64,000 nt of DNA, taken from Chrysomallon squamiferum (lineage: Eukaryota; Animalia; Mollusca). Numbering within the stretch: the first letter of the stretch is position 1; the number at the start of each line of letters is the position of its first letter. This document shows, piece after piece, positions 1 to 34,233 of this stretch. The stretch is from NCBI GenBank assembly GCA_012295275.1, contig CM022670.1:39246001-39310000 (forward strand). Direction: 5' to 3'. The notes beneath the pieces are model-generated. The model was not told where the DNA came from. It ran no database searches and worked only from the letters and a program-made list of their open reading frames with translations. The translations under genes and the position numbers were made by a program.

Positions 1-562
1 AGTGACTCACTTTTTGAGTATTCCAACTGGTCAGCAGTTTTCCTTTGAAATAACACGACTTACTGGTGTTACTTCCTAATTGTTAAAATTTACAAATGAA
101 AGAAAACAACTATCTTTTCACATTTTTCATAAGCTGACAAAGGTAGACACAATAAACACTTTGAGTCTAATTTAAAACTATGGGCTTTAACAGAGATTTC
201 TGCACTAAAACTAAAGCCCATGATACATTTGTTATTACATACCAAGATACCTCATAAACAGTTTTATTACAAAAAGAAACATTTCAACATCAAAATTATA
301 CAGTTATACATTAAATAAAAGACAAAAACAGTTAAATATTCAAGAAAGTAAAATGTGTGATTCTGCATGAAAAAACCTGACAAAGTGATAACATTCATGA
401 ATGTAATGTAGTGTTTGTTTTACAAGTCATTTTTAACTTACAAAAGAGAATTTAATTATCTGTAATTTTTTCTAATTATACTTTTGTGGTAATGTGAGAA
501 AAACAGCTTCAAAACTTTGTCTGGAATTTCACACAGTATCAGTTTTTTCTAAACACTGCATT

Positions 563-3487
563 TTAAACAAAATTATTTGATACCTCAAGTTTGACATCTT
601 CGTGTGTGCAGCACAGGTCTTTTTCTAACTTATCTAGTGCTGACTCATCATCATCAGGACATGTTTCATCAAAAAGTTTATTGGCAAAAACCTTTTTATT
701 CTGTTTGTTAAAATCGGCGGGAAGGTCACATCGCAGAAGATAACATCTGTGAAGAGACATCTTGTACATTGTATGACCCAAAAGCATCAACGAGTCAGTG
801 ATCAGTGCTGACACAGTCTGAACATCAGCAGAATCTGAGTTGACTAATAACATGCACTCTATAAGAGGCGTCATTCCTACTGCCATACACTTGTTAACAT
901 ATTGCAGTTGGGTTTCACACTTGCGCATCTGTTCTGTTACAGATTTCTGCTTTAAGGTATTTATTTTTGGAAACAAAAGGTTCTTATAGAAAGAATTTGT
1001 CAGATATTTGGCCTGGATGCTTACAACTTCACCCCATTTGCTACAAGCCAGATTGATCATATTGGCAATATAGATATCTGCAGGAGGCCCCATCTCTTTT
1101 CCTTCTGGAAAGACATCTTCAAATGTACTTCTATTTCTGTGATCCACTTTATTTAACCCACCCAGATCAAACATATTTTTGGAAATGATACTATTTGTCA
1201 TAAGTGACTTTCGGCATTTGATCATTTCATGAAATGCCAGGCCAAGCAATTCCAGTGCATCTGCAGCATACACTGATGCTCTTTTTGCATTGAATGAATT
1301 TGTGAAAAAAAGGTTGGCCAAATTAACAACTGGCACCATCCCTATTGCTAAAAACTGCTGAGCATTTCGCAGCAGATTGTCCTCATTCCTAGAAAGCTCA
1401 GACAACATCAGTAAAGTATCAGACTCTAACTCAGGAGCCTTTAGCTGAAAACAGTTAACTGGTATCTTATATTTTCTACTGATGCCAGCCATATTAATAT
1501 TTCCAGTACATGCCTTATTAACAATATCAAGAATGTTATCTAACTTTGCAGCATTAGATTCTCTACATAAATCAATGTCTTTGGAAGGACTTAGACTATT
1601 TTTCTTTGATGTCTTTCTTACATCACCGATGGACTTGTTATGATAATTTTCATGATCTTTAGTATTTCGTGTTTGGTCAAATTTAGAAATTTTGAATGAT
1701 CCTGGAGATCCTGATATTTCAGATCTATAGCTTCTTTTTCTAGAGTCATCTTTTTCATTTCTATTTAATTTTATTTCTGACCTTCTTTCAAAGTTCACAT
1801 CTTTACTTATGTTTAGCCTTTTATCATGATCTGAATGGTGGACATCATAAGGAGATAAATCACTTCTTTCTCTTCTCTTGCCACTATCTTTTTTATAATC
1901 TGTATCACTTCTTTCTCTCCTCTTGCCACTATCTTTTTTATAATCTCTGCTTCTGTGTCTTGATAATCTTTCATTTGGAGATCTATGTCTCTGATATCTT
2001 TTAGCAGTATGATCTCTTTCTGTGGAACCGCAAATCTTTTTTTCTGAAACTCTGTCTTGATCAACATTGTGGGAAAAATTCGAACTTTCCTGTTTTACAG
2101 TAGCAGAATTTCTGTTAAGTTCTTTTTCAGATCTACTTTTGTTAATGTCAAACATCCCCTGTCTTACCAAAAAAGAAGCTGATGTGTCAATTTTATTTAC
2201 TGCTATTTCTGAATGACAGTCTGTGGGAAAACCCCTTTCTGTACCATCATTTATGGCTTCTGAAATTTCATTCTTTGACATAAACTCTGGATTTCTGTCT
2301 TCATATCCACCTGGTCTGAAATTAAAGTGTCTCTGTGATGGGTATCTTTCTAAAATATTATGATCAGAAGAAAAGCATTTTTCCTCACTTTCATTAAATT
2401 TATCCATATATGATTTTAAAACATCTCTATCAAGTTTATCATTGTTAGCCTTTGCCCTATCACTCTCCAATACCAAATTTTCCAATATTATTTTCAATCT
2501 CTCCTTGACATCAAAATTGAATTGGGAGTTTTCATCATGTTGTCTTTTATTTATTCTTTCCGGAATATCTGAATACGTTCTTCTATCTGCATTATTACCT
2601 TGTTTTATGTAAGAATCTGTTTCCATTCTGTCAGATGTATTCCTTTCAGTGTAAACACTATCACTGGGTAAATTTCCTGTGGTATGGTCGTCTGGGATTA
2701 GATAGAGAGTATCTTTTTGATCTAATGAATGTAATGAAGGAAAATAATTTTGTTGTCTGAAATCTTCATTACCAAAAATATCTCTAGTATTTGTTTTTAA
2801 ATTAGACAAATTTTTCTCTAAATCTGATTGTGCTGCCTGTCCTGACTTACTTGCAGATTCTGCAGAATTATCTTCAGGAGGGCTCATTACTTTGTTTTTT
2901 AAAATGCCTTTCAGCTTAAAAGGCTTTTGAGGTTTTTTTTCATCTGAAAGTAATTGGCTATCAGTATGGAACTGGGAATTCTCTTCACAAAATTGGTGGT
3001 CTTCCTGTCTTCTGTAAAATTGATTATCCTGATATGTAGAAAATATATCATTCTGATGCTGAGATGATACATCAACTACATTACCAAAAGACCTTTCACC
3101 TTGGTACCTGGATAGTTCATGATTTAATATATTTTCTTGATATTCAGGTATGTGATTCTGATCTCTTGATAAAATAGTGTGCTCAAATCTGGTGTTCCTG
3201 GATATCCTGCCTTCAAGATTTCTAGATGGTAATTGATATGTAGGTTTCTGATGTGAATAATCAGAAGACATTGTGGCTACTTCAGATGTATCATAACCAT
3301 GTCTAGTCTGGTACATGTATGGAAAAAGAGACTGGCCGGGAATTGTGAAAAATTCCTGATTTCTTGGACATTTTCCTCTCTCATCAGAGTGCTGCCAGTG
3401 CCGGCTACTGGATTCAGACAAATGTTCACCATATTTGAAATCTGCTGATTCATCACATGCTTGCTGCATTGATTGAGACATATTCAT
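563..3487 (-). CDS. Intronless 974-aa protein: disordered/RS-RD-rich N-terminal ~640 aa plus two tandem C-terminal domains resembling DIRS1-retrotransposon Gag/ORF1 (LAP2alpha-like); candidate domesticated gene
   Basis: 2.9-kb uninterrupted ORF in very AT-rich DNA; in-frame TAA 15 nt upstream of the ATG; AATAAA on - strand at 263-268. Two homologous blocks: IVNKAC..KYKIPVNC..L.AP..AIGMVPVV..DALELLG.A..EM...R and GPP...IANMINLAC..KY....L.FP..AVGMTPLI..DSLMLLGH..YKMSLHR. Coding status is well supported; the family call is recalled motif similarity. Confidence 0.85.
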   Translation of the reverse strand: MNMSQSMQQACDESADFKYGEHLSESSSRHWQHSDERGKCPRNQEFFTIPGQSLFPYMYQTRHGYDTSEVATMSSDYSHQKPTYQLPSRNLEGRISRNTRFEHTILSRDQNHIPEYQENILNHELSRYQGERSFGNVVDVSSQHQNDIFSTYQDNQFYRRQEDHQFCEENSQFHTDSQLLSDEKKPQKPFKLKGILKNKVMSPPEDNSAESASKSGQAAQSDLEKNLSNLKTNTRDIFGNEDFRQQNYFPSLHSLDQKDTLYLIPDDHTTGNLPSDSVYTERNTSDRMETDSYIKQGNNADRRTYSDIPERINKRQHDENSQFNFDVKERLKIILENLVLESDRAKANNDKLDRDVLKSYMDKFNESEEKCFSSDHNILERYPSQRHFNFRPGGYEDRNPEFMSKNEISEAINDGTERGFPTDCHSEIAVNKIDTSASFLVRQGMFDINKSRSEKELNRNSATVKQESSNFSHNVDQDRVSEKKICGSTERDHTAKRYQRHRSPNERLSRHRSRDYKKDSGKRRERSDTDYKKDSGKRRERSDLSPYDVHHSDHDKRLNISKDVNFERRSEIKLNRNEKDDSRKRSYRSEISGSPGSFKISKFDQTRNTKDHENYHNKSIGDVRKTSKKNSLSPSKDIDLCRESNAAKLDNILDIVNKACTGNINMAGISRKYKIPVNCFQLKAPELESDTLLMLSELSRNEDNLLRNAQQFLAIGMVPVVNLANLFFTNSFNAKRASVYAADALELLGLAFHEMIKCRKSLMTNSIISKNMFDLGGLNKVDHRNRSTFEDVFPEGKEMGPPADIYIANMINLACSKWGEVVSIQAKYLTNSFYKNLLFPKINTLKQKSVTEQMRKCETQLQYVNKCMAVGMTPLIECMLLVNSDSADVQTVSALITDSLMLLGHTMYKMSLHRCYLLRCDLPADFNKQNKKVFANKLFDETCPDDDESALDKLEKDLCCTHEDVKLEVSNNFV
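1859..1946 (-). repeat. 45-nt in-frame tandem duplication encoding DYKKDSGKRRERSD twice
   Basis: atcacttctttctc(t/c).ctcttgccactatcttttttataatct occurs at ~1859-1901 and ~1904-1946, inside the RS/RD-rich part of the ORF. Confidence 0.9.
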
Positions 3488-4614
3488 CTGATAATCATTG
3501 GATTAGTCCACAGACATCAAAATCCAGTTAACAGAAGTATGACATTTTTTTTTTTTTTTTTTTTTTTTTCTAAATGAAGTATCTGGAACTTTAGATCAAA
3601 TCTGAAATGTAAGAAACAGTTTCTGTTTAGAATAGAAGTACAATCAAAAATAAAGAAATTTCATCTTTTGGCTTTCACACTTTATATTGGTAATTTGAAG
3701 CATATTTGGCTTCAAGATAAATCTGTAACATAAAGCAGAAAGTTATATAAATTTGGCAATTGAAATTTTATACTTCTATCTTTCAATACATATTCAGGAA
3801 AACCAAAACCAAGCTGTAGTAATAAAAACAAAAAGACCAGATTCTTGTTACATTTTATGAAACTGTTTATTCATTTAAGTGAGAATCCACCAAAGTAATA
3901 CAGATATGCAATATATTCAAACTGCCTATTATTACTGATGTGAAAATATAAAAACAATAAATGTACAAAATCTTTCTTTCTAAAGCACTAAACCTTTTAA
4001 TCAGATATTAGAGCATTAGGAGAACAAAGCTTAGGCACTATTAAGCAGTTTATTTAAATGCTCCCTAACAGGAAAGATATACAAGAAATATACTAAACAG
4101 AAACAATTCCTCTTAAGATGAAGATGAATTCCACTATGAATCTGCCAGAAAAACTAGTACAGGTTTTAACAGCCAGTCAAATGTCTTCATTGTCAGACTT
4201 GATAACATCTGCCATCTGCAATCAGATGTTGAACACCTCCTATCAGTTATTATCAGAAACATTTTTTTTTTTTTTTTTTTTTTTAAAACAGATTTCGACT
4301 TAGTTGAAAAGTCCAGGCATAAACTGCAGCAAATGATTTCAAATTCTTTTAATATGAACAATTCTTATGCTTGTAATACAAGATATAGTTCACAGTCAAT
4401 CATTTACTGTGCATACCTTAAATGAAATGAAGACAATGTGGCACAAAAGTTTTATCAAAGCACCTTAAATAATAGATTCAATAAATAAATTTCTTCTTTT
4501 GCTGTATTCTTCCACATTTCTAATTTTCTTAAATGGAGATGACAAACTGTGACCAGAAGTTGTTTCAGGATCAGGTCTAAGATTCAAACCATCAAGAATG
4601 CAAAGATATATACA

Positions 4615-4658
<44 letters not shown>

Positions 4659-7600
4659 CACACACACATCGAGTTATATGTATGTAATTTCTCAGTTAAT
4701 AACTTTTCTTTTTTATAACAAATGTTCTTTTATAATGACACTCAGTTTTTAGGAACACAAACATGCTGATATTCTGCTCTGTCCCTGAAAAATAAATTCC
4801 AAAACATCACACCTACCTCAGAACCTTTTGGCAAATGATGTGTTTTGGTCAAATTTCTTCTTCTTTTTTTTAAAGAATTTGGAATGGGATTTAAAAGTAG
4901 GGTAAGTTCTATACTGTATTTTGAACTACTATTCACATATATATATAAAAACCAAATATATAATCACTGGACTGGACTGGACAGATGTCTGGTTTGAGTA
5001 TTTTAATTTATGGCTTCAAATCAGTGAATAACAGTAATTTTAAAATAATAATAATAATAATGAAAGAAAATACATTTATGACACTGAATATAAATTTCGA
5101 AATAAAAGGATAATCTAAATTAGTAAGTTGCTGCTGCATTTATACCCAATCATTAAGTCTTGGCCATTCAAAATGAATTACGAGTTTAAAAACTTTAATA
5201 TCTTAATTCTATGTTTACTTTTAATATGTACATTCATAATATAAATCATAAATTAATTATCAGGCTGATAAATTACAGTCATTTACAAATACGTTATTTT
5301 TGTTGGTTAGCTTGGGTGGTTTCACTTTCAGGTGTGTCATTCTTTGGACTAAATAAATGCAGTCATTAAATACAAAATGTATGGGATTGTTTGCATAAGG
5401 AAATTACATAGTTTTGTTACATACCAACAAAATGTATTGTCTTTCAAAATCCTAAATTTGAAAGCTCTCAGTATTAATACTGACACATGCACCATTATTG
5501 AATGCGATGTTGAACGTCTGCTCCAAATAAGAAATAACCGGAAGAAGCCGCAAATGCGGCTAAATGAAATGCAAATTTTTACGACGTCCAATAGCAGCCA
5601 CCTTAGAGAAGAACGTAGTTCAGTATTTATACTTAATTAAGAAACATTGCTCACTCATTTAATTTACACAAAACTGATTGATAAAATTTTATAATTATTA
5701 TTATTGTTGTTGCTGTTATTAATATTATTTTATTTATTTCATGCGTTACGTTATTATTAATTCGTTTTAAAGTACTCAAGCACATAATACCGATTAACTT
5801 CTTTTTGCACACTTTATATGCACATCCATGTAGATGTAAAGAAAATGTACAGGCCTTTGATAAAACAACTGTGGGTTTACTGTTTAGAATGAGAAACGCC
5901 CAATATTGTGTCTGAGAGAGAAAGAACAAGTTAATCTTTTGTATACCATTAAATTAATATAATGCATATCTATATGACAAGCAAATTAAAATTTAAAAAT
6001 ACATAATTAAACCAAATATTCTCACCGAAGTTCAGCCATAAATATAGTTCACTAAATTTGGAATAAGATTATATTTTGTTACAAATAAAATTGGAAACAC
6101 ACACGCACACACACTCTAATTAAAATTGAGGATAATTTTTATATCCTTATTAGGTCACATAAATTGCGTTTACGTCCATGTGTGCATATCAGAGAAAACT
6201 AGTTTTATTTTAAAAAAAAAAACAACAAAAAAGTGATTTACTTTTAGAAGTAAGAAGCTGAAATCTGACTCTTGGAGAATGCATAACAGCAGCATTTGTA
6301 CAGAAATTTACTGATTTTTTAAACATTTTTTAAAATGTTCAGTGTACTGTAGTTACTGTTGTATTTACATTGGTGTCCTATTCATTGAGAGAACCACGTC
6401 AACATCAAAATAACTATTCTTATCAGTTCATGATCTTACAATCAGATTGTAATGACCATTTAAAAAAATAATAGTAATATTATTTTATGCTTAATTTGTA
6501 TAATGGTTTTTTGTTTTGAGTTCTTTTTGGTTGGGTAGTATTTATTTTGATTTCTTTTGTCTTGTAATTAGTTTAAAATGTTAAAACAATGATAATGTTA
6601 TCATCTTTGTAACTGTTAATTTTGACTCTGCATCTTTCCTCTGATCAAATAAGAATAAATCCTTCATTCATTTTTTAAAACTTTAATCTAAGTAGAACTA
6701 GGTTATTTTATCTCAGTTGTACTAAATATGACTGTGATTCAGCGTGAACATAATTATGTTTTCTGAAAAAAGTTACATATTATGATGAAACGAGAAATCC
6801 AGGTTTCATTTGAAGCTTGCATTCTTTTCTCTTTGCAGAATTACTTATATACAACCAGTGCAATGTATAAATTCATTTGTTGTTATGTTATTAATTTTTT
6901 TTTTTTAACCATACAAAATTATAATATAGGAGAAACTACTTTCCATACAACTGCTATTAGTGATGGAGATGCAAGCTCTAGTAGATCTAAGGATCAGTTG
7001 TGTAGTAATACAACTACCTTTTTTCTTGTCATACAAACTGTTTCAACAAAGGCTGTTATTTTCACTTTGTTGTTTACAGGAAGTTGCATATAAAAATATT
7101 ATTTACTATAAATTTGAAAGTCTCCTTTTACAAGGTTTTCTCTTGTTATTGGTATATTTTTAATTATGTGTCTAATGCCATTAATCAGCAGATTAAAAAT
7201 GTTTTTCTTCTTCCAATATTGACTCTATTTCCATCTTGGTTCTTTTTCTGCCATCTTTAAAATGTAAAACCCTTAATTCCAGTTGACAGAAGTAATTTAA
7301 ATACACTGATGTCTGGTACATTTATTTTGTTCTTTTAACACTTTAAAGATGTTTGGTTTAGGCTGTCTTTATTATTATTGGTTTTTGAGGATTGTTACCT
7401 CTCATGTACAAATATAACATTTGTTATAAATTATTTAAAAATCCATCCCTTTCATGATCTGTGTATCAAGTTCAGATTATTTTATTTATTTGTTATATAA
7501 ATTAATCTTACCTATAACATAATTATTCTCTTTAAAATCAATTAACTTATTTTACAAAATTATATTTTGTTGAGTGTATTTCTTTATGTTAAATACAAAA

Positions 7601-8427: not shown

Positions 8428-8453
8428 TCAGTCATCAGATTTGGCTTTCTTTG
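8428..8453 (-). CDS. CHERP: CHERP exon 18 (terminal, AKKAKSDD*)
   Basis: tttacag acceptor; phase fits exon 17; TGA at 8428-8430. Confidence 0.7.
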
Positions 8454-8717: not shown

Positions 8718-8769
<52 letters not shown>

Positions 8770-10051
8770 AATAGAAATAATATTAATTAAGGAATAAATG
8801 AATTAAATTATGTGACAAAACTCCATATTTTATTTAATTAAGAAATTTCTTTTTATTTCTAGCCAGATTGTCTCTCCCTGACTCAGACCTAATGTTTTAT
8901 TACCTTCTCTTGATTCATCTCTAGCTTTCATTCTCTGAATAAATCCTTGGCTCTTGCTTTTACGGAACTGCTCAAAAGGATCTTTTAGATTTATACCAAT
9001 TCCTTTGAAGGCGTCCTGTCTGTCTCTCACTTCTCCTGCCTTTATTGGATTTTCAATTCCTTGTTCTTTCACACCAAGACCTTTACCTCCCCAACCTGAA
9101 ATGAAGTAACATTAATTAAATAACACAGAGCACATTTTAACATCATTAATGATTGCTAGGTGGTGTTTACATTATAGTGATATGACAACTAATCTGATTT
9201 CATCATTATTTGGCCTACATATTGATACAAGGATGGGATATTACAAAAGATTTTTAATTTTTTTTTTTACCACAGACTGGGAAATGAAAACAATGGGGTA
9301 CTGATAACAAGTGATAAACATTAGCTGATAGGACAAATCACAAAAACAAAAGAAATGTTAAAAATATATTGATAAACTAACACAGTCAGTATGCAGTCTG
9401 GAAAATAACCTAAATTTAATACAGTTATGATTTGATATCAGGTATGTTATGATGTAACCAACAGCATTTCTGGCAGGTATTTCACAACAAATACAAAAGA
9501 TACATCACAGTTTTGAACTACCCTGTATGAAAGACAAATTTAATAAAAGAAACAAACCCATTTTCTTCAAAAGCATATGGCCTTTATTATCTTCACCAAG
9601 TTTGGATTCATCCTGATTTACTGCAGGGACTGTAGGGGGCATGCTGAAAAAAACCAGTTTTAAGTCTTTTTCATATTAATGAATCACACACATCATAAAA
9701 TACAGTTACATTTTATTTTATTAAAACAGAACTCAAGTATTTAATCAGAAGTTTTGTTTATATTTTATTAATATGATACAGTTCAGTTTTGTGAGAGTAT
9801 GTTTGAGATTTACATTTACAACACACAGTATACTGAACACACAGAGAGCTTATCAATAATGCCTTATACATGTTTAAACTGCAAAAAAGACAAATCTCTC
9901 TCTCTTGCTCTCAAACACAAACTACACAGCATAGTGATACATACATGTGGTTCCAGACACTGATAAAAAACAGAATTTTTTTATCTACAGATATATATAT
10001 TATACAACACATGGCTGAAAGACATAAACAACACAGAAGCATGCGAGCATG

Positions 10052-10085
<34 letters not shown>

Positions 10086-13000
10086 CACACACACAATCAC
10101 ACATACATACAAACATATATAAATAAATATAAAAACAGACATTTGTAAACCCAGATATCCATACAAGCAGAGAAAGACACACTGAGACTGGTGTGATTTA
10201 ATACGTACAAAGATGGTGGTGTTGGACTTCTGGATTTTGCTCGCAATGTGTTTGGCACTGGAGGAGATGGAGACCTGCTTCTGCGAAGATAAGGTAGGGG
10301 TGATTTTGATTTTGATCGTGATCGTGATCTAGAAAAGTATTTTTAAAATAGTTACTCTATTTTAAAAACTTATTTAGTGTATTAAAATTAAAAATTAAAA
10401 TTTAAGGAGTCTAATTTCTGACTTTTACTGCTTTTTTATTAATATAATTTTTTTTTTTAAATTAAAAAGATTTTTCGTAATGATTTTTTTCATATTTAAT
10501 TTTTTTTTACATATATTAAATAAATTAGAAATGACTGAAATTCAAATTCAAGATAATTACCTTGACCGACTTTTTCTGTCCCCGCTAGCATACCTCCTTC
10601 TTCGAGGTGGTGATCTTGACTTAGATCTTGATCGGTTTCGAACTGGAGACCTTGGTTCCAGTTTCAATGGTTGCTCCGAATTTGAAGGGTTTTGTAATCG
10701 TTCCTCTTCAACTTGTTTTTCTTTAAGTCTCTTTGCACCTTGTTTGGCTTTGAAGAACTCATACAGGCCCAGTTTTTCCCACCCATCACTGAAAAATAAA
10801 CAATACGTTAACATCCTTCTCAAAATATAATTTCTGTCTTCTCTAACAACTTGGTCAGTCCTGAAATAAATATTTTAAAACATTTTTGAAATTTATTTTT
10901 TGGTGAAAACTTATCTGTGAAAACCTAACAATAAATCTATTATTTATATATACTTTCTCAGTTTTCCTTGTTTAAAAATAGACAAATTTTTTACTGTGGA
11001 AAAATTATATTTCAAGAAGAAAAACGGCAAAATTTAAATCTGTTTTTAATCATTTCCCTGGACAGATCTTATTTAAATGTTAATTATGAATCAGTGTGTT
11101 TTTAAAATTCCCTTCACCAAGGTGCTGCTGACTGAAAAAAGCCAGGTTAATGAGAAATATCAAAAGACAATACTGCCTGTCTCTTGGCCTGTCATGTGAA
11201 GGAGGTCCGTAGAATGCTTCCACCGCAGCCAGGAGTCTCTCACTTGGTGGCATGGGTGGGGGTAGTCGGATGTCGTTTGGATCCAGTGGCTGGTATTCAG
11301 TGTCTTCCAACTGTCGGAAATTAAAAACAATTTGTTTTTCCGAGGGATAATACTTTAACTAAACTTTGAACGAAATGCAGAGAAACACATGCACACACAT
11401 GTACACATTATTCCAGTACTAAAATTAATCAAGTTAAAATATGTAATTTGTGAAGTCTAATTTTAACTTTAAAAGTGTTAACATATTCTGTAAAACATGA
11501 AATTATCGTGACCATATTCACTTAATATATTTATTTCAATTTTTTTTTTTCGTATAGTTTGAACCAAACAGAAATTATTATATTAATATATTTTATTAAC
11601 TACAAAAAAGAATAAAAATAAGAATGAAGGTCATTTTTCTGATCATGCATCAATAATGGCTGCAGTATTTGCAAACTTAGAACTGTACGATCCATCATTT
11701 GAGAATACAACCCATCAAAAATTTAACCTGCTTTCCATGATAAAAAATAACTTCTACAATGCTTAAAGACTGCTTTCAAAATATATGCATGTGAGATTAC
11801 CTTAGAGCAGCATCTACTTCTCAACCATTATAAATTATACAGGCCTTTAACTGTTAAACAGACCAGTGTCATTAGAAGATTATAATCTCAAAAAAAGGCC
11901 ACTCAGCTGAACTAAGACCACATTCATTTCATGATTTACAGTACATGACACAAATATAAGATAAAAATAAAACAAAACGATATCAAAGAAGACCTACTTT
12001 AACAAGCGGAGCCATGAGGCCTGCTGGTAAGTCGTAATACGGAACTGACGGTGTCAAATCAATTTCAGTTGGCAAACACGGGAATGGCGCTGGTGGAATT
12101 GGTCCAGGAGGACCATGAGGTCCTGGAGGGGGAGGCCCAGGGGGTCCAAGTGGGGCTGGTGGGGGTCCTGCAGGAAATCCTGGGGGAGGTCTGCTGAAGT
12201 CTGGCAGGGGTAATGGTGGCACTCCAGGAGGAAGTCCTGGTGGGGGTCCTCTGAAATCAGGAGGCATAACTGGGGGACCTCGTGCTAAACCGTGTCCATA
12301 CTCAAACTGCTGTGGAGGTGGTGGTCGACCAAATCCTGGGGGTGGGGTGTGAAATGGTGGCATTGGAGGTGGTTGTGTGAAGTTTCCAGCAGGTCCCAGT
12401 GGAGGCTGGGTCCCAGGTGGAAGACCAGGAGGTGGACCCTAGATTAATTAAAACAGAACATTTACATTAATACACATAAACATCAGTTAAATAATGTTAC
12501 ATTAATACACATAAACATCTGTTAAATAATGTTACATTAATACACATAACCATCAGTTAAATAACGTTACATTGATACATATAAACATCTGTTAAATAAT
12601 GTTACGTTAATACACATAACCATCAGTTAAATAATGTTACATTAATACATATAAACATCTGTTAAATAATGTTACGTTAATACACATAAACATCAGTTAA
12701 ATAATGTTACATTAATACACATAAATATCAGTTATATAATGTTACATTAATACACATAAATATCAGTTATATAATGTTACATTAATACACATAAACATCA
12801 GTTATATAATGTTACATTAATACACATAAACATCAGTTATATAATGTTACATTAATACACATACACATCAGTTATATAATGTTACATTAATACACATAAA
12901 CATCAGTTAAATAATGTTACATTAATACACATAAACATCAGTTAAATAATGTTACATTAATACATATAAACATCAGTTAAATGTTACATTAATACACATA

Positions 13001-15927
13001 AACATCAGTTATATAATGTTACATTAATACACATAAACATCAGTTAAATAAGGTTACATTAATACAATATCAATAAAGTAACTATAACAATAATAAATTT
13101 AAGATCTATTAAATAAGTGTTTCATTAATACCCAGGTTAGGTAACAGTAATAAATTTTAAAAAGTGTTTCATTAACACACTTAAACCCAGATTAGTTTCT
13201 TATATTTAAATTCATTTTAGAAATTGACAGACAGAACTTATTCGTAACTTCTATTCTATTAAAGATGATGCATTCTTTAAATCCACCACAAAAAACGTGA
13301 ATATTCGAACATAATTTTGTACTTTATTTATTTTTATTTTGTTTTAATTACTTTTTTTTTAACAATTATTTAAAAGAATAAAGCAAATATAATGTTATAT
13401 ATTGGTATTTTTTATTTTATGTTACCAAGCTATTTACCTGTGGTATTATACTGTTGATGCTCTGAGGAGGACCAGTGCCCGGTATCTGTATAGGAATCTG
13501 TGGCTGTTGACCTTCACCTTCCTTGGACGGTGCAGTTACGTCTGAACTTGGATGAGCACTTTCTGACTGTGTGGATGCCGGTGTTTCTGGTGTGGAAGTT
13601 TTCTCAGCAGGTTCCCCTCCCCCACTGCCACTGTTCCCAGTTTCACTAAGCTGGACTGGAGGAGCCTGCAGTGAAACAGGAATATTCACTGCAGTTATAG
13701 CTGCCACGTTAGGAGGGGGTGCTAAAAAAAAAAAAAAAAAAGAGAAATCTGATTGAAAAACTTCATCAACAAAATTTGAATGCCTTTATGGAAAGAAAGT
13801 TTATATAAATAAAATGAATTAGGATATAGTATTTTTTATTAACCACTGAACTACCTCCGTTATAATAATTTTATTAAGTGATTTAAAGTATGTGGAGCAA
13901 TACAGCTTATTTTTATGTAATTTTTATTAAAGTACTTCATGATGATGTTGATATTATTTGATTTTAATTGTGTTCATTAATAATGGATGTTTTAACCTTT
14001 TGTTACCAACCAAGTTGTTATATATCTTTAAGGCACTGGGATAATATTTGATACTAATTATATAAGCTAATAATGGTCACAGTTGATATTTTGTTATCAT
14101 CCAAGTTAATTTACTTCTTGATAATGATTACTTTTATTTGATATTAATTATAGACATTAATAATTGACAAAATTAACATTTTATTACCAGCAAGTTACAT
14201 GACGATATTATTTAATACTAATTATATATAATACCACTTATTACCAGTTCAGTTACTTTTGCTTGAAGACATTTCAGTATTACATCATATTACTTACACA
14301 TTAATAATAAACACAATTTGAATATTTTATTATTAACAGAGTTATTGACTGGAAAATGACGAGATATTTTTATTACATGCTGTTAATAATCAACACAGTT
14401 AACAGATGCGTGAACGTGCATGTCAGAAAATGAAAGAAATATATATGTTTGTTTGGTTTAGAAATTAATCTACCTCCCACTGGAACAATGGCACCAGTAG
14501 CAGGTGGTGGTAGTGCTCTTTGTTTAGCCATCAGTATCTGCAGCTGAGACTGCATCTGGGCTATGGGGTTGTTGAGGTGAGCGCAGAAGTCCTGATGTTG
14601 TTTTTCCAAACTGGCGTACTGGCTTTGAATTTGTTTGGTTATTGCTGTGACAATGCTGCCATATTCTGTAATGAGACTAGCCTATAGGGGGAGGTAAAAA
14701 AAAAAAAAAAAAAAAATTAAACATTTTGATAAATCTCATCAAATGAAACATAATTATTGTGAAATAAATATTCAGTTCAGACTGATGATTATTATGTTAA
14801 GTGAAAGAAAATGGTCGTGACTGGAATTTGAAATATGTAGGTAAATTGGTGTTTTAAAATGTTTATGTTATGTAAATTTCTCTGGTAACAACTAGTATTT
14901 GAATTATATATGTATAGTAATATGTAACCTAAGTATTTAAAATAACTCTGAATTCAGTCATGTATTTAGTGTAGTTATAATTCATATCCCTTTCATAAAC
15001 ACTGACATTGTCACAAATGATTAAATCATTAAGCTTTATTATCACTGTTGTTTTTAATTTTTCAAAATTATAACGATGTCAGTACCAAAAATAAAATATG
15101 AGCAAAACATTAGCAGAAAATGACTTTATACTATGAAGTCTCAGCAATGAGCAATATGCATGACTACTTTGTTTGTTTTTTTTAATTTTTTTTTATTGAA
15201 AAATTAAAATGTATTCTTAATTCAATAAAAGCAGGTTGATCTTATAAGATATTCAAAAATGTTCATCTTCAGCAAACTCTCAATGTTAACCAATTAAACC
15301 AGTTAACCAAAAGCGTTTATTCTACTAAAAATTAAACGAAAACATAATGAAATGTATAAAGATTAAAATGATTAAGAATAAAATTTGTGCTTTTTTATTT
15401 ATAATGTCCCTTTGCTCTGTTTTAACGAGTTTTATGTTTTGCTCAGAAGGTTTCATCCAAACGGTTTACAACCACTTAAACTGTATTTTAATTATTCACA
15501 GAGTACAAGATGATCCAGTGACAAGATGCAATAATCATTCATTCTACAAGTGTGCATGCATTTGCTGTACTGGATGTACATCATGGAGTCATGTTCCATC
15601 TCATTTGGAGAAACATTACAGCAAACACAAATGAATAATACTCACTTGATATGTAGCCATTGAAGCAGCAGGATCTTTTAGTTGCTAGAAGTAAACCAAA
15701 ATAATTTTTATTGTTAGTTAAAGAAAATCCAAAATGCAGATTCCAAAGTATCTAGTAACTTTTAAACAGTTTTATCAGAACAAAAGATTCTGACAGTTTA
15801 TTGTTTGAGCTTCTGTCTAACAAAGCTGCATTTGGTAACATTTTAAAGCTGAAATGTTTTTTTAATACAAACACATCTGATTTGAGTAACTTAAAAGTAT
15901 AGATATTTTAAAAATACAACTCCTTAG

Positions 15928-15991
<64 letters not shown>

Positions 15992-18900
15992 ATAAAATCA
16001 TAATTACATTCACTAATATTAAAAAGTGTCATGTAACTTGCTTTTTAAAAAATCTATTAAACAGTAGTGAATTTTTAATTCATTCATAAACACTAACACT
16101 TTATGACCTCACCTAAGTATTCAATAAAACTTTGTACTTAATAGAAAGGGATAAAAAAAAAAAAAAAAAATGTCCCAGAAACCATTAATAATTTTTAAAA
16201 TGAGAGTAAGTAATCGTAATAACAAATAATAATAATAATAATAATAATAAAAGCACAAATCCCACAAAAGCCCACCAAAAAAAAACAACCCAAACAAAAC
16301 CAAAAAAATGCCCTCAACAACTATAAATTAAATAACAAAACATAACTAAAAATAAATAAATAATTAATCTATATTATTAATCTTTATTGTTTACAATTTC
16401 CTTATGTTACACATCAAACAATATTGGCTAATGTTTTTAAAATGCAAATTTTTTGTGAGAATTTAATTTTAATATCCAGCAATTATTAAACAATGATTAT
16501 TAAACATTCAGGATTTGCAAAAAAATGACATATGTTACCAAAGAAACCAGTTTTAAAGAGAAAAATATGTTAATTGAAACTGTAACTAAAACAAATATTA
16601 AAATAAATTTTGAGCCTGAATTTTAAATCTGAAAACTTCATTGATGAAACAGAACAATAATTGAATTTAATTAATTTGTTTATTTTATATATTATAATAA
16701 AAAATGTTAATTACTAAATCAAAATTAAACAGTAAAATTAAATCAAACAACTAATATCTTTTATTCCCTTGGGAAATGCCAAGAAGAAAATAAAACAATA
16801 ATAATAATAACAAATAATAAATAATCAATGCTGAAAGGTTAAATTTCTTGCAAACAAACAGGTCAAAACAAATATTCATATGAAACAGTCTCACCTGCAG
16901 TTTCTACAATCAGTAAAAACACAAAAATTAAATAAGAGAAGCAAAAAAAAAACATTAAAAAATGTATAAAATAAAAATAAAGTTAAATGAACACTTAACA
17001 ATATAAATTTTTTATTTGAAAACTAAAAAAAAACCCACTGAAACTAATAGTATTTTTTAAAATAACTAAAACTGATCAATTAAAATTAGAAATGACGTCT
17101 ATCTTGTAATACTTAACAGTTAATAATAAATGCACTTTTTTTTCTTCTTTTTTTTTTTTTCAGACTTTTTTCTATTAAGTTAATACTGAATGAAAATTTT
17201 AACCTTTATGTTCAAGCACATTATATATGCTTATACTTTTGAAATCTATATTGTGGTTTTTTTTGTGGGCATTTTTTTTTTAAAAGGTAAATTAAAATAT
17301 TTATTAAATTCAGAACATATGATAAACAGTAAAGATACTACTTTGTCTTAAATACAAAACTGGTGATTACAAATAACTGTAACTATAGTTTTCACTAAGT
17401 CAAATAAGTGTACGTTTCTATTACCGAAATTTCTAAGATTTAATAAATTAAAAAAAATCATAGACAACTGCAAAATAAATCATTTCTAAAGCCAGCTGTG
17501 TCTTAAGTGATTACCAACATAACAAACATGATGTATTTTAGCTCAATGACCGTGAAAATTTTAAAGAGTAAACCCAGTATTTTATATGTAAATTAAACAC
17601 ACTTACTGAAATAGTTTCAGTATCAAAGTAATTATTCTTCTCCCATAACGTCAGTAGCTGCAAATAAAAAAATATTAATTCTTTCATGAAATTCCAATCT
17701 GATAATAATGCATAATAAAAGGAGCTTTTTTTTTTTTTTTTTTTGTTTGTTTGTTTGTTTTTGGTTCTTGTTTGTTGTTTATTTTTTTTATAAGAAATCA
17801 CATTTTGAGAGTGAGTATACCATTTTAACATTTTCTGTTAGTTTTTTTAGTGGATTTTTTTGAAAAAAAAAAAAAAAACATTACAATAATTAATTTTGAC
17901 AGACAATGAATTAACATGTCCTTTTTAACATTATTATACATATTAGATATCAAAAAATCATGAAACAATTTTAATATTTCATCACTGATATATTTTATGA
18001 AAATAACATAAAAATTAAATTGATAATAAATTAAACTGAGAAACATTCCTGAAATCGGAGTTCACCTTATTCAGTTTTTGTTTAGATTCTTCATCAACAC
18101 CCAAACTGGATTTACAAAACGCTGGCACAACCATCTTATCCAAAGCAGTCTTCAAACCATCAATGCTTTTTCGCTGACTAATTATTTAAAAAGAAAAATA
18201 GGAAGGCATCAAAGAAAATAATTAATTTAAATAGTGAATTGATGCAGTTTAAACAATAAAAAGACTTTTCTGAATTCTAGGAGTTAAAATATTTTTGATT
18301 CAAAAATTGTTGGTCTGGCAAAATGCACAGAGGAAGATAAACACTGAAATGAATTAGGTCAGTTTAAAAACCTTTAATATCACAAAGATAAAATTAAAAA
18401 AGAAAAAGGAAAAACAAAAATCTCACCAATGGTGTAACAGATCATTTGTAAGGTATATTAAATGCAGTCTTGTCTGGAATGGAGCATCCTTGCTACAGAT
18501 TCTAAAATAAAAAATATTTATGAAAAATAATTAATACGATACTTGTACTTTAAAAAAAATAATAATAATAAATAATAATAATAATAATGATAAAAAAAAA
18601 AAGTTTACAAAGTCTGTAATGAAATGAAAGACTATCACTATATTTTTTTCAACCAATTTATTGTATATAACTCATACACTTTGTTTAAGAGACAAACTAA
18701 CGTCTAATTATTTCAGCCAAATACTAGAGCCTAGCTGTGTCAAAGTCATTAAAATACTTTTTTTTATTTTTACTCTTTTAGAATCTGTTCCTTTCATTAA
18801 TAGCTGTAAAATAATATTCTGGTGAATGTGGAGCCATGTTATGGCATTTTAACATTTTTATTTATTTATTCTCAAATTTGAATGTAGTTTTTTCATGGGG

Positions 18901-21900
18901 AATTAATAGGTCTAAAATGATGGTGATGCAGATTTTATGGAACCTTAATGGTGTGTGTAACTGCACTGAAATCTGAGAGGTGTCAGTGTTTTAGGTAATA
19001 AACTGACATGCAATGACTTATTATCAGTAATCTTTAAAATGCCATTGTTGTGTTCAAACTCAACCACAGTGGGTCATGAAAGTACCTATTAAATCATTTA
19101 GCGTGTTTTTTCCCTTAATTTTATGTTTATGTTTCTTAACTAATTTTATTGTATAGAAACAGATTACAAAATCTCAAACCTACAAATTGATTATTTGCAT
19201 GTGTATGTGTATTTATATACAATAACAAACTGCTATAAACTGTTATTTGATAAACTGTGTTAATTTATTTTTTTCTTGTGAAATAACAAGCATGTCTTGA
19301 TAAAAAAATAATAATAAAAAAACACATTACAAAACATCTTTAAATTAAAAAAAAAACAGTGATGTATGCTTTAATATCTATCATAACACAAGAAACTTAC
19401 TGTCATTTGAACATAATTCTACAAGTAATTTTTAAAATATTTATAGGTATATTAATTTCAAAATACATTAAAATTCATTGCATATCACTTACATCAGAGG
19501 CAAAATGATTAATACTGACCCAGCAGTGAGGGTCAAACTGGGATCAATAAACACCAATTTCGGTTTAGGTAATTGGTGCATCATTGTAAGAAACTTAAGA
19601 TTAATAATATAAATCATTTAATTTTGTTTTTAAAAAAAAAAAAAAAAAAAAAAATGTTTTTTAGTTATCTAACTTTATTTACTTTTAAGCAGAGACATTT
19701 GTTATTAATAATATTTTTGAGAGATAAAGATTCCATGATGTGGCTGATGGTCTAAAATTATTAGCTGACACCAGAGTTATAATCATACAGTTCTCAGATA
19801 ACAATTCATAACATATTTCTTTACAGAAACATTAAAATCAGTTTTAAATATTATGTTTGTATTTTAATACTGTATATGACTCTTACCTTTTCAACAAATA
19901 CTGGGTGATGAGGTTGCAGTGATCTGAAGAAACACAGTGTGCTAAAATCCAGTTCTTACCATGCTTTAAAAAAAACAAAAAAAAACAGTGATAATAAATA
20001 CATATTATTATGATTATATCATCTAGTAGTCCCAAGTTATATTATATTTGTGTGTGCATGTGTGTGTGTGTGTGTGTGTGTATGTGGTTTAAGATTAAAA
20101 AAAAAATTAGTTTTTTGTTTTTTTTGTGGAGGACATAGTTGTCTTCCTCTAGAAAATCTCTTCCAAAATCTCAATAAAACCAAATATAAATTGTAAATGA
20201 AAAAAAAAAATAATAATAATAATGAAGAAAAGAAAAGAAAAAAAGAAAAGAAAAAAAGAAAGAAAGAAATACAGTACTTGTTCCAAATGTGAAGGAATAT
20301 TTTTGTATTAACTGTAAATAATTTCTTTTACTGTATATTACTGAATCAAACAATCATTTATAGGAAACTTGAAGACAAATTAATATACATGTATTTTTTT
20401 TTCTTCATTGTTTTTGTTTTCCAATTAAAAATAAAGGGTTTTTTTAGACGGACAGCACAAATTAAAAAATCTATTACAAAATCATCAGCATTCATTTCGG
20501 TTGTGATATTTCACAAAATTATGATCTTTAGCCACTGTAACTGTGAGATTCAGTGTAATACATTAAACATTTGTCGTTTTTCTTGTACATGTTTTTATTA
20601 TTCAAACTAACTGGCAATTTTACACAGATTTTCTATTGACGCCTTTAAAGATTTTATTTTAAGAAAAATTACTTTTAGCTAATCTCTACAACAAAGATTT
20701 GACTATGGGATTATGCACACTCCATACAAACTAATTAATGAGAATGTTTTATTTCAAGGACTGCCACATATTCGTGCCCTGTTGTACCTAAGCTTTCATC
20801 AAATCATCTGTTTTTTTAATATATAATTACTAAGCTTCATATATAGATATTACAACTGGAATGAATGCTGATAATATTTTTTGATTTTCATGTGCATCAT
20901 TTCATAAAAATCATAAAACTACAAATTTTTCTCAAACAGAAAAAAAAATAAAAATAATAAAAAAGATTTACATTAATTTGTCTTTTTTCCCTTTTGTCTA
21001 ACAACTAAGTGAACCAATGATGAACAGTAAACTACATCACTTTTCAAGCTGATATGAAATTATTTCTGTTAAATGTTCATTCAAAAGCTCACCATGATAG
21101 AGTCTTTTGTGCATGAGTCTATTATAGGTTGTACCATTTTATCTAGTTCATCCATTGACACTTCACAGTCTCTGCTCAAAGCAGCCAGTTTGTTGTCCCG
21201 TTCTTTAACAATAGCATCTTCTATCTGAACCTGGAATTGATCATATATATATATATATATAAAAAAATTTTTTCTCTCAATGTTGGTATTAAAAAACTAA
21301 CATGTATAATAAATTGTAGAACATACTATAAAGCAAAATAAAAGGTATTTTATGAATAGGAGAATATTTTCTTCTTATTACATTCTTTAAGTCAGTTAAA
21401 AAAAAAATAATGATAACAATAGAAAAAAAAAAAAAAAACTGCATAAGTGATGCAATGTGACCAGCACAGAAACAAATAAAAAGATTTAAAAAGTTAACAA
21501 ACTTCTGGGGTGCTGGATTTGGGTTGACTTTATTACTAATAGATTACAGACTGCTGAATATATATCTTTAAATTATGCTGTTTGGCCTTTTCTTTGAAAG
21601 ATTAGAATCAGTTTCATTGAATTTCTGTATTACAATATCTTTCTATCTTTGGGGGTTTCTTTGAAATAACAGATCTGTAAGGAAAGATCACGTAGCATCA
21701 TTAATGTACATAAATCCCTAACACCCCCTCCTCCCAGCAGCATGTTGAAAATAACAATAATATTAATGTCCCCTGTCCTCTGTTTTTCAGGCTGTACCTG
21801 CTGTTGCTGGGTGAGGCTCTGGTACTGAGCAGCCAAATTGGAATCACTCTGCTTGATCTGCTCAGCAACAGTGGCTTGCTGCTGGGCTATCTGCTGCTGT

Positions 21901-24433
21901 AGTGCTGTTATCTGCTGTTGGAGTGCAGTGGTCTGTTGCTGCTGCTGCAGAGCAAGGCTCTGCTGTTCTATGATTTTGTTCTGTTGCCATGGCGCTGTCT
22001 GGATGGCCTGCTGAGTAATAACTTGCTGTACAATGGCCTGCTGCTGAGCAAGTTTCTGGTTCTGCTGCTGGATTCCTGAACAAGACAACAACCAAATTTA
22101 AAAACAACGAAGTGAAGTTTCTTAATCAGTAGTTATATATATGACAAACTCATATTCAAAACCATAATGATTTTGAACAAATTTGTCTTGAGGGTAAATG
22201 TACAAATGTACAATAATATCTTTCATGTTTAATAGATATCTTATATATATACAACTGATCTACATTTTGCTGACTGATGGAAAATGGCCATTTATAAAAC
22301 TATAATGCATTCTATTAACTGATACATATAAGCTGACTATAAATTTACTCATTTAAAAAAAAAAAAAATTAAAAATGTTTAAAAATTTTATCTATTACGC
22401 TGTCTTCACATTATAATACAATATCAAATAATGTATGCACTAAATATTTATAACAACAATATTGGAAAAAAGACAAATTTTAAAGCATATTTATTATTTT
22501 TATTAATACTATAATCTTGTGTATCTATCTGTCTATCTATTATATAGTGCTGTGTGCGCACACACACACACACACATTTAGTTCAAAACATCTTGGTGCC
22601 TTTTGATGTAGCATTATGGACTGTTTAGAAGTGAATAACCCATTAAGATGGACTGCAGGACATCTAATTAAGGAGTATGTTCAGTGATGGTCATGTGTGT
22701 ACATGAAAGCAGCATGTCAGCAATATACATCTTTTCACTTGTCAGCACCTATAACTAGAGTCTGAAGATGTGAGAGGCCTTAAACAGGAGAACTGAATTT
22801 AAAATATCTTTTACTAATTTTTTTTTTTTTTTAATAATAATGTTTATAAGACATGATGTGTATCTTATTAATCCACTAATGCTCTTTCACAACACTGCTT
22901 TAGAAATTTTCTTCCAAAAGGTGTACAAAGAGGTAAATTTACAGTGACACAGAATTCCAAATTTACGGTGATTCAGACATATTTATAAATCCTTATGCAT
23001 AAATGTAAGTGGCAGTTATAGTAGCAGTAACCGTACTAGTTGTAGTAGTGGTGGTTATAGCAATAGTAATGGCAGGACTAAGAAGATGATATTGTAATTA
23101 CCTTCAGTGTGACATAGATTAATCAGTATCCTCAGGTGCAATGGAAAAACATCAAATTCCTTTGAACTCAATGCCAACAGAGTCTTGTTATAAATGCACG
23201 CATTTAACCCTTATTATTTTATTTAATATAGTGGCAAAACAGCCAATAATATATCGTATGTCAGTTTTTCCCATCATGTGCATAAACAATGCATATTATA
23301 AAACAACTAACTTTTCATAATGCCTACCCCTTATCTGTATGAAAATGTAATTTTTTTTTTTTTCACTAGCTTGTTCTGATGAAACTTTATACTGGTAATA
23401 ATTGTAATATTCTCCACCAAACAAGAAAGAAAATTTGGGGTTGTCTTTCTGTTTGGTTTTGGTCATCTGTTCAAATTCAGGTCCATTGCGGGCCACAAAG
23501 TTAGCCAGCTTGTCTATGATGTTCACCAGTTCTGCATCTGTAAAAAAGAGTTTAACATGAGGAATATATAACAACTCTGCAACCAAAGGAAGAAAATGTT
23601 AAATATCATTTAACCAACTTAACACAAACTAATATTTAATTTAAGAACATGTAAAGTAGATTTTAACATGAGGAATATATAACAACTCTGCAACCAAAGG
23701 AAGAAAATGTTAAATATCATTTAACCAACTTAACACAAACTAATATTTAATTTAAGAACATGTAAAGTAGATTTTAACATGAGGAATATTTAACAGCTCT
23801 GCAACCAAAGGAAGAAAATGTTAAATATCATTTAACCAACATAACACAAATCTAATATTTAATTTAAGAACACATAAAGTAGATTTTAACATGAGGAATA
23901 TATAATAACTCTGGAATCAAAGGAAGAAAATATTAAATATCATTTAATTAACTTAATACAAACAAGTATTTAACTTACAGAACACAACATTACATACGTG
24001 TTTAATGACCAAACAGAACATGGTAGGAAAGTCACAGTTTTTGGGGTGGTTTTTTTCATTTAGCATCAAGGGGTTTTATATTTGAAGATTAAATTGAAAT
24101 GGCTCAACTTTTATGGTTAGGACAACTGATCCCCAAACCACATTGCCTCAGTTCTAAATCCTAACTATAAAGACATATCCCATCCTTTTATAGTTTAGAT
24201 TTACAAACTGACTTGATTAATGTTAAATATACCCAAAATTATCTTTTCAATTATTATTTTTTAATTTAAATTTTTAAACTTTCAAAATAGCATTGTACAT
24301 GAAAAATGTATTTTTCAAAATTATATACTGTGAAAGCTTTTGATCATGGACCCCCTTCTAAAACAGGATCTGCCCAGTACATTTCATATAATAAAACTTC
24401 TTTGGTTTTTTTTTACTTTTTTAAATATCAGTG

Positions 24434-30693: not shown

Positions 30694-34233
<3,540 letters not shown>

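Follow-up and report, generated by a model that had tools for sequence, protein, structure and literature searches.

Tandem DIRS1 Gag-derived domains in the giant first coding exon of a probable chimeric host gene of the snail Chrysomallon squamiferum

A giant coding exon next to CHERP

The window analysed here is a stretch of 64 kb of the C. squamiferum genome. Its minus strand carries an unbroken ATG-to-stop frame of 974 codons (563-3487), as claimed in an earlier note on this DNA; the stop-to-stop frame begins at 3502, with an in-frame stop just upstream of the ATG. The note also called the gene intronless, which did not hold: the frame belongs to a giant exon with a phase-0 GT splice donor (582..583, minus strand) after codon 968, where one RNA contig departs. 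The giant first coding exon (584..3601, minus strand) comprises a short 5′ leader, the ATG at 3487 and 968 codons to the donor, its putative 5′ end at 3601 being placed by a pyrimidine-tract CAG acceptor. RNA contigs end at 3536, at a poly-T run skipped in the alignment; hence the 5′ junction lies outside the contig data.

The exon is covered by RNA contigs in both RNA runs (one study); positions 1-308 and 3543-4600 have none. The contig that exits at the donor (run X7, loose end at 582) continues with 84 letters absent from the window, the next exon lying beyond the window's left edge; the splice evidence is this one contig of one run, with 30 of the 84 loose letters displayed. Six of ten residues past the junction are identical to Gigantopelta aegis, in which RefSeq isoforms X1-X3 leave the read-through sequence at the residue that corresponds to the donor. 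The last six codons of the 974-codon frame are read-through into the intron.

Residues 1-640 (1568..3487, minus strand) are of low complexity and, judged by composition, likely disordered. A disordered RS/RD N-terminus had been described before; the composition agrees, with RS/RD dipeptides mainly at residues 440-640 (RS/RD-rich, 43% charged). Pfam searches with the window protein and its repeats (four queries) gave no match, the N-terminus included, PDB sequence searches returned chance matches only and Rfam had no match in positions 1-30000.

The upstream neighbour, adjoining on the same strand, is CHERP (8830..23598, minus strand; Pfam Surp E 6e-20, G-patch E 2e-6), a SURP-CID-G-patch splicing factor with CID exons at 21230-21093, 19963-19887, 18501-18427, 18177-18066 and from 17657 (minus strand). 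CHERP is spliced on its own in an RNA contig (X7, record 28). A fusion of CHERP to the N-terminus was considered and rejected because the RNA shows no joint between CHERP and the exon and the frame is closed by a stop just upstream of the ATG.

Two diverged repeats of DIRS1 origin

Behind the low-complexity region stand two diverged domain copies, much as the note had placed them: repeat 1 at residues 650-767 (1187..1540, minus strand; profile E 2e-27), without the domain's last ∼25 residues, and repeat 2 at residues 800-941 (665..1090, minus strand; profile E 2e-23). The GPP motif assigned to both copies precedes repeat 2 and is absent before repeat 1. The copies are 24% identical over 104 aa (BLASTP E 2e-7); their mutual score of 86, against a shuffle maximum of 53, was reached in none of 2000 shuffles, and no likeness remains at the DNA level. 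The identity and the shuffle test support the old internal duplication that had been proposed.

Both repeats match ORF1 of a full DIRS element (L003): repeat 1 with 31% identity over 110 aa (BLASTP E 2e-14), repeat 2 with 25% over 125 aa (BLASTP E 2e-12). The proposed origin from DIRS1 ORF1/Gag is thereby confirmed, ORF1 of DIRS elements being termed Gag by position only. L003 and a second element, L004, are whole, with ORF1, RVT_1, RNaseH/Dam-like and Phage_integrase and with inverted ends of 206 nt and 143 nt; among the 73 ‘DIRS’ rows the whole-element setting is shown for these two only. The snail gene shares with their ORF1 a homologous domain of ∼150 residues at 25-31% identity with a gap-free core. 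Unlike these elements, it has no pol, methyltransferase, recombinase or inverted ends; its domain is doubled, about half of the conserved positions are changed and an RG-rich tail is lacking. Of 15 positions conserved in the DIRS rows the window repeats keep 8 and 7 (DIRS median 14, minimum 10). The domain is single in 73 of 80 matches, and ORF1 is not doubled in either whole element. A further sequence, L002, judged by eye, has an ORF1 and the beginning of a frame resembling RT.

Mobility genes had been reported missing near the frame, and this proved true of the whole 64 kb: tblastn with five ORFs from two DIRS elements detected no RT, RNaseH, methyltransferase or recombinase (best E 0.9). 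Nor does the region 1-9000 contain terminal repeats, as also claimed, or inverted ends or an internal complementary region, all plain in L003 and L004. Viral contigs held no relative of DIRS ORF1.

Orthologues and CHERP-type CID domains

Orthologues, suggested earlier as a check on domestication, were found and conserve the domain. G. aegis LOC121375913 (XP_041359549-51, ‘uncharacterized’) is the likely orthologue, sharing N-terminal motifs, the doubled domain (59%) and the splice point; its N-terminus is longer than in the snail window protein. Repeat 1 is 55-57% identical to orthologues, gap-free, and repeat 2 59-67%; conservation is highest in the repeats (55-67%), the N-terminus being 28-33% identical to the two orthologues. 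Long stems with short tips in the tree also speak for a host gene.

Exactly at the splice point the G. aegis orthologue runs on into two CHERP-type CID domains (PF04818 in XP_041359549, E 3e-17). They are 27-30% identical to the window's CHERP CID (E 1e-21), and their exons start within one or two codons of the CHERP CID exons and in the same phase; the gene's CID exons likely come from CHERP. By analogy with the orthologue, CID exons very probably follow the giant exon in this species too, in a chimera that, compared with CHERP, has no SURP or G-patch. The earlier note was right about a Gag-doubled host protein and missed the spliced chimera, with exons left of the window and CID domains indicated by the orthologue.

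CHERP binds the CTD at three positions, Asp220, Arg227 and Arg262 (PMC10470302); mapped by spacing, these are D, R and K in the CHERP of the window. At the Asp220 position the two G. aegis CIDs carry E/D and at Arg262 A/E, the assignment of Arg227 by spacing being ambiguous. The phosphate-binding basic residue of CHERP is replaced in both CIDs, which makes Pol II binding doubtful; judged from these residues, they would likely have lost CHERP's way of reading Ser2-phosphorylated Pol II.

Predicted fold and pairing of the repeats

The DIRS-derived host genes named in PMC4495291 and PMC5753468 are the mammalian LAP2alpha and ZNF451 exons, and we found no paper that describes the present gene. For the model of repeat 2 (pLDDT 87), the LAP2alpha dimerization domain (2v0x) ranked first among 162 Foldseek matches with probability 0.93 and TM 0.51 at a weak E of 0.37. 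The VIA alignment to 2v0x (Z 7.3, rmsd 6.3, 143 of 156 residues) was the longest among the 50 VIA matches listed, Z 7.3 falling in the range of common helical hairpins. The whole-domain match to the 2V0X fold is weak and concerns a predicted model. The PF11560 (LAP2alpha) profile matched none of 4 window queries, 78 relatives and 2 whole-element ORF1s; thus this entire branch of invertebrate domains escapes the profile. An Atlas cluster, 25% of whose members carry PF11560, had score 0.91 and rank 9. The LAP2alpha likeness asserted earlier stands, at that weak E and for a single-repeat model, as the top Foldseek match, and fails on the Pfam profile.

The model of both repeats together reached pTM 0.80. 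Its best VIA matches are four-helix bundles that span helices from both repeats, headed by a designed hairpin dimer in its single-chain form (Z 12.2). With Foldseek it had nothing below E 0.001, and 2v0x is not among the matches listed by either program; the 2v0x match arose for a single repeat alone. A lone domain of DIRS type (P0018, residues 200-365; assigned by domain, the whole-element setting being shown only for L003 and L004) was predicted as a homodimer with a score of 0.84 against 0.00 for the best control, the runs agreeing in at least 92% of contacts with pLDDT of at least 82. In the microbial set, 21 of 30 solved pairs and none of 23 single chains attained the mark for a dimer; in the eukaryotic set it was 17 of 29 pairs (7 of 16 from animals) and none of 30 single chains. 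Of the eukaryotic pairs without an older solved relative one in seven passed, and the P0018 result may be a memory of 2V0X. The LAP2alpha C-terminus itself is described as a four-stranded antiparallel coiled-coil dimer (PMC11417337).

A pseudo-dimer formed by one chain is likely, given the homodimer predicted for the lone DIRS Gag and the shared four-helix bundle into which the two repeats are modelled; the pseudo-dimeric protein envisaged in the note is thus supported at the level of prediction by the two-repeat model and the P0018 homodimer, and we consider it probable that the two repeats pair in this way. The prediction of a helical-hairpin dimer like the LAP2alpha C-terminus for DIRS ORF1 also makes the question of its being a Gag testable.

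The snail exon resembles the LAP2alpha (TMPO alpha exon) and ZNF451-L2a exons (PMC4495291; PDB 2V0X) as one large exon with a DIRS1 ORF1 domain fused to host domains, and LAP2alpha as its top structural match with a predicted four-helix dimer core. Unlike them, it has two tandem copies predicted to pair in one chain, derives from a molluscan DIRS lineage below the PF11560 profile and is a first coding exon that splices onward, theirs being an alternative last exon; its partners are RS/RD and CID, theirs LEM or zinc fingers.

Doubled Gag modules in other molluscs

The same doubled Gag module occurs in Haliotis (XP_046584950, XP_067678646 and XP_067679539) and Mytilus (XP_052062253 and XP_076111814), all five proteins being ‘uncharacterized’, with partners that differ from those of the snail gene. 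In Haliotis they are a CCCH finger or repeats, the finger of Haliotis asinina being below the cut-off (E 9e-5); in four Mytilus species the module is placed behind an NCOA5 domain (1v95, E 2e-25). Because similar doubled domains exist in abalone and mussel genes, molluscs likely tamed DIRS1 Gag, as mammals did for LAP2alpha. The independent invertebrate domestication that had been postulated stands as domestication with orthologues, but is wider than one lineage. The range is a lower bound: a homologue search over proteins of 619-2000 aa (top 7989 candidates) returned four proteins and missed its own Haliotis queries, and a search by whole-protein alignment, covering proteins of 2817-5000 aa only, was uninformative, with nothing found. 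These genes add an independent molluscan case of DIRS domestication with a new architecture, in at least three lineages and three host-gene settings; the Mytilus NCOA5 and Haliotis genes belong to species open to bench study.

How many times the doubling arose is less clear. The snail, abalone and mussel genes could each have been seeded on their own, by doublings that happened separately or by a DIRS family whose ORF1 was already doubled, a possibility to which we give appreciable weight, somewhat short of an even chance. Host partners differ by lineage, the free tree puts repeat-1 units in three groups with Mytilus repeat 2 apart, and window repeat 2 scores 51-57 against Mytilus repeat 2, under its mean of 114 against the DIRS rows. 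On the other side, repeat 2 of three neomphaline-type and three Haliotis proteins forms one starred branch (98/95), AU tests do not reject a single clade for repeat 1, whether of the gastropods (p 0.37) or of all proteins (p 0.31), or for repeat 2 of all proteins (p 0.50), and single domains prevail among the matches, neither whole element having a doubled ORF1. The tree omits P0032 and P0076 (both partial), the isoforms P0004-P0006 and P0120 (found later). Only tentatively do we propose that doubling preceded the gastropod-bivalve split and that the giant exon was then shuffled into CID, NCOA5 and CCCH genes, founding an undescribed adaptor family that may couple RNA processing to DIRS recognition.

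Proposed mechanism and role

We are confident that the locus is a domesticated host gene, best read as old and chimeric. On balance we favour reading it as a spliced gene whose giant first coding exon holds two tandem DIRS1-Gag domains, predicted to form a pseudo-dimer, probably followed by CIDs likely derived from CHERP, the product likely being a nuclear RNA-processing scaffold. For a DIRS Gag domain on its own, the prediction is a homodimer held by its two long helices, like LAP2alpha; in the doubled protein each repeat would supply one helical hairpin, and the two hairpins would pack into a common four-helix bundle, the folded unit being complete in one chain. Folding within one chain would have allowed the halves to diverge (24% identity) and rendered the unit portable, and a partial copy of CHERP's CID exons, duplicated locally, may then have been captured behind it. 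This suggests a general route of domestication, in which covalent doubling of an obligate-dimer transposon domain yields a portable one-chain module. The RS/RD region would target the protein to nuclear splicing compartments, and the outer surface of the bundle would bind partner proteins, as the LAP2alpha dimer does.

RNA-related partners recur: CID in vent snails, NCOA5 in Mytilus and the sub-threshold CCCH finger in H. asinina. The evidence leans to an RNA-processing context over the chromatin or anti-DIRS roles; that a nuclear RNA-processing scaffold is the main role we put at even chances. A defence factor, whose Gag-like domains would enter and disrupt the Gag assemblies of DIRS elements or steer their transcripts to the nuclear RNA-processing machinery, would suit the Gag origin of both repeats, the predicted self-association of the DIRS Gag domain, the recurring RNA-related partners and the occurrence of DIRS1 elements in molluscs (PMC3266345). 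It seems unlikely to us: the modelled repeats spend their dimer-forming helices on each other, leaving no such face free, they keep only 8 and 7 of the 15 DIRS-conserved positions, and, far from being the fastest-changing part of the protein, they are its best conserved.

Transcript form and minor observations

A single RNA contig (413-611, depth 2.5) covers the intron start, or read-through tail (413..583, minus strand; TAA at 565-563), and crosses the donor unspliced, with ATTAAA near 456; the contig may be unspliced RNA, library DNA or a short alternative 3′ end. This contig, the ATTAAA and an orthologue in ENA whose read-through frame likewise closes shortly past the donor would fit a stand-alone 974-aa protein as the main product, intronless or a last-exon isoform like LAP2alpha, with the CID form minor. 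We regard this as improbable, as the spliced contig is deeper (6.5 vs 2.5, depth being a poor measure) and all three RefSeq isoforms of G. aegis continue into further exons. A live or recently dead DIRS element with pol and recombinase just past the window edge, for which the window's mere 562 bases downstream of the gene leave room, is already largely refuted and extremely improbable, given RNA that splices to a host-type exon, a host-like N-terminus of 640 aa common to orthologues, no terminal repeat in 1-9000, and DNA contig depths that, although no measure of copy number, are similar for the exon and CHERP (7.5 vs 6.6 in X2; just upstream, 20.7 vs 17.1 in X3).

In the frame 13 differences were seen, eight amino-acid-changing and five silent, a small sample of little information. 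RNA joints with sides of 20-22 letters, with matches of 21-22 letters at 443-464 and 4102-4122, were treated as chance. Upstream of the exon, a CpG-rich patch (5400..5800, no strand assigned) with observed/expected ratios of 1.2-1.9, against 0-0.3 in most flanking bins, is a candidate promoter; an RNA contig spanning 4967-5516 may be the gene's 5′ end or a long 3′ UTR of CHERP.

A doubled DIRS1 Gag domain

A single long frame of 974 codons occupies positions 563-3487 on the minus strand, in DNA of ~30% G+C. As the earlier note had claimed, the C-terminal third of the frame holds two diverged repeats (repeat 1, aa 650-767; repeat 2, aa 800-941; minus strand); they are 24% identical across 104 residues (E 2e-7), and none of 2000 shuffles equalled their score. 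Nothing of their likeness survives at the DNA level, so the internal duplication of the Gag domain is old. Composition agrees with the reported RS/RD-type N-terminal part: aa 1-640 are low-complexity, with RS/RD dipeptides clustered mainly at aa 440-640. A recent 45-bp tandem duplication (1859-1946, 97%) lies inside the RS/RD region and keeps the frame.

Pfam gave no match to the window protein or its repeats; the proposed LAP2alpha entry was among the blanks. A phmmer scan of 1.84 billion representative sequences returned 80 matches. By a profile built from the single-domain ones, 73 of these carry one domain and the other seven carry two, as does the window protein (E 2e-27 and 2e-23). To identify the single-domain proteins, we fetched the DNA round relatives at four loci. 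Two of them, the metagenome-contig loci L003 and L004, each hold an entire DIRS1-like element: beside ORF1 they encode reverse transcriptase, RNaseH and Dam-like parts and a tyrosine recombinase, and their ends are inverted repeats of 206 nt in L003 and 143 nt in L004, the layout that PMC3266345 describes for DIRS1. Both (L003 1-4915, L004 1-4755) are apparently complete and intact, with near-perfect inverted ends. Repeat 1 (31%, E 2e-14) and repeat 2 (25%, E 2e-12) align directly to L003 ORF1, so the DIRS1 ORF1 origin proposed in the earlier note was right; the other DIRS frames had no match anywhere in the 64 kb, as that note had said of its immediate surroundings.

Against two orthologues, repeat 1 aligns without gaps at 55-57% identity and repeat 2 at 59-67%; the N-terminal part is 28-33% identical. 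Among runs, the frame shows 13 differences: 8 replace an amino acid, 5 are silent and none is a stop or an indel. A tree of 89 domain units places the two snail repeats on long stems (1.6 and 1.2 changes per site) with short tips (0.1-0.4), which points to much early change and conservation afterwards. At 15 positions conserved in DIRS rows, the window repeats retain 8 and 7 (DIRS median, 14).

The gene is a real case of independent invertebrate domestication of DIRS1 Gag, new in architecture: orthologues conserve the repeats (55-67%), and the exon is transcribed and spliced. Neither a molluscan DIRS-Gag gene nor the doubled domain is described in the papers listed by a search that covered few subscription journals; supplements of mollusc genome papers might list such genes as transposon-related. 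The accessible part of PMC5753468 names LAP2alpha and ZNF451 alone as human DIRS-derived genes, and what is available of PMC9004415, PMC10901741 and bioRxiv 10.1101/2021.08.05.455354 and 10.64898/2026.09.02.748897 does not contradict novelty. All doubled-domain proteins are named 'uncharacterized' in databases.

Gene structure and CHERP

The nearest named protein is that of Gigantopelta aegis LOC121375913, the likely orthologue (59% identity over the doubled domain; 56% for an ENA protein). These matches point to a related neomphaline vent snail as the host. Beyond the residue equivalent to codon 968, each of the three G. aegis isoforms runs on into a CHERP-type CID domain; X1 carries two CIDs (PF04818, E 3e-17). 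In the window, a GT directly follows codon 968. Contigs from both RNA runs (a single study) cover the exon; RNA depth is zero at 1-308 and 3543-4600, and DNA run X2 spans 1-3846. In RNA run X7, one contig leaves the window sequence at 582 and continues for 84 further letters; a stretch of 30 of these is absent from the window and, translated onward from codon 968 in the same frame, agrees with six of the next ten G. aegis residues. The frame, earlier taken for an intronless gene, is therefore a giant exon of a longer spliced gene. A short form terminating at the TAA is possible, as a contig at 413-611 (depth 2.5) passes the donor unspliced.

CHERP lies next upstream, also on the minus strand (8830-23598; Surp, CID and G-patch, with Surp and G-patch identified by Pfam). 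When the G. aegis CID profile was run against the whole window, the best four matches were the CHERP CID exons, in order; joined, these exons share 27-30% identity with the G. aegis CIDs (E 1e-21), and the first, in phase 0, starts within 1-2 codons of the corresponding place. The simplest inference from these sequences is that a partial tandem copy of CHERP was captured behind the Gag exon. CHERP itself is spliced independently (an RNA contig of X7), and a stop codon lies in frame upstream of the Gag-exon ATG. RNA contigs between the two (4967-5516, 5852-6105) could be the 5' end of the Gag gene or a long CHERP 3' UTR. Tandem arrays lie inside or at the edge of CHERP (12462-13066, 35 bp x 17; 23539-23984, 111 bp x 4).

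Doubled modules in other molluscs

Further doubled proteins were found in Haliotis rubra, H. asinina (two) and Mytilus. One abalone protein has an N-terminal CCCH finger, a match under the cut-off. In these three Haliotis proteins (P0007, P0008 and P0012) the module is C-terminal; one has the CCCH finger and Q-rich repeats, and another bears many ~20-residue repeats in a row. The M. galloprovincialis protein (P0120, XP_076111814) carries the module at aa ~570-920 behind a clear NCOA5 domain (1v95, E 2e-25), and the tail C-terminal of the module is presumably NCOA5-like too. This linkage occurs in four Mytilus species: M. galloprovincialis, M. edulis and M. trossulus (same cluster) and M. californianus. 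P0010, from a cluster of 38, is a separate doubled protein of 462 aa, about the size of the module alone.

The Neomphaliones/Vetigastropoda split dates to the Palaeozoic. The doubling is likely older than this split, because repeat 2 of snails and abalone forms a single starred branch (98/95) in the 89-unit tree and Neomphaliones and Vetigastropoda are sister groups (PMC7142155). AU tests did not reject a single clade, whether of the repeat 1 units of gastropods (p 0.37), of all repeat 1 units (p 0.31) or of all repeat 2 units (p 0.50). In the free tree the Mytilus units are separate from the others, and their scores against window repeat 2 are low; the module may have had one or two origins.

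Predicted structure and possible role

Repeat 2 was modelled with AlphaFold (75 sequences, pLDDT 87); for this model, Foldseek ranked the LAP2alpha dimerization domain (2v0x) first, as the earlier note anticipated, with modest values (probability 0.93, TM 0.51, E 0.37). In VIA, 2v0x ranked 8 (Z 7.3, rmsd 6.3), with the longest alignment, 143 residues, among the 50 matches listed. By scores alone, the modelled resemblance is modest; it agrees with the descent of LAP2alpha from DIRS1 ORF1 reported in PMC4495291. The LAP2alpha domain also occurs in Xenopus DIRS ORF1 (bioRxiv 10.1101/2021.08.05.455354).

A two-repeat model (11 sequences, pTM 0.80) has two long helices per repeat. Its best structural matches are four-helix bundles over residues 57-284, with helices from both repeats; the top one is a designed hairpin dimer in single-chain version (Z 12.2, under the safe level for helical bundles). 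Two copies of the single DIRS-type domain of relative P0018 (200-365) scored 0.84, and the highest of three controls scored 0.00; the long helices form the predicted interface, at least 92% of contacts are common between runs and pLDDT is at least 82. Of the solved pairs, 21 of 30 microbial and 17 of 29 eukaryotic ones attained the mark for this score, and none of 23 single chains did. Only one of the seven eukaryotic pairs lacking an older solved relative passed, so the P0018 score may partly reflect the predictor's memory of 2V0X. According to PMC11417337, the LAP2alpha C-terminus is a dimer with a four-stranded antiparallel coiled coil, is required for chromatin association and binds lamins in vitro. 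Together, the two-repeat model, the P0018 dimer and the LAP2alpha dimer predict a covalent pseudo-dimer, in which each repeat would give long helices to a shared four-helix bundle within a single chain; the pseudo-dimer proposed earlier thus stands as a modelled prediction.

Our best guess for the role, to which we give an even chance, is a nuclear RNA-processing scaffold, since the RS/RD region lies in front and CIDs probably behind, and NCOA5 and a CCCH finger are partners elsewhere. The CHERP CID binds the pSer2 and pThr4 CTD via Asp220, Arg227 and Arg262 (PMC10470302); mapped by spacing, window CHERP has D, R and K there, its phosphate-binding position being Lys instead of Arg. The third position is A and E in the G. 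aegis CIDs (again by spacing), so these likely bind another target or bind weakly. That the protein acts as a defence factor is improbable, as the dimer face is apparently consumed within the chain in the model.

Other features of the window

Two dispersed repeats (51060-51347, minus; 58335-58628, plus) are related to each other in opposite orientation and gave no Pfam match. A MAP kinase-interacting kinase (Mnk) gene lies at ~31400-34250 on the plus strand; one exon matches MNK2 (E 3e-38).
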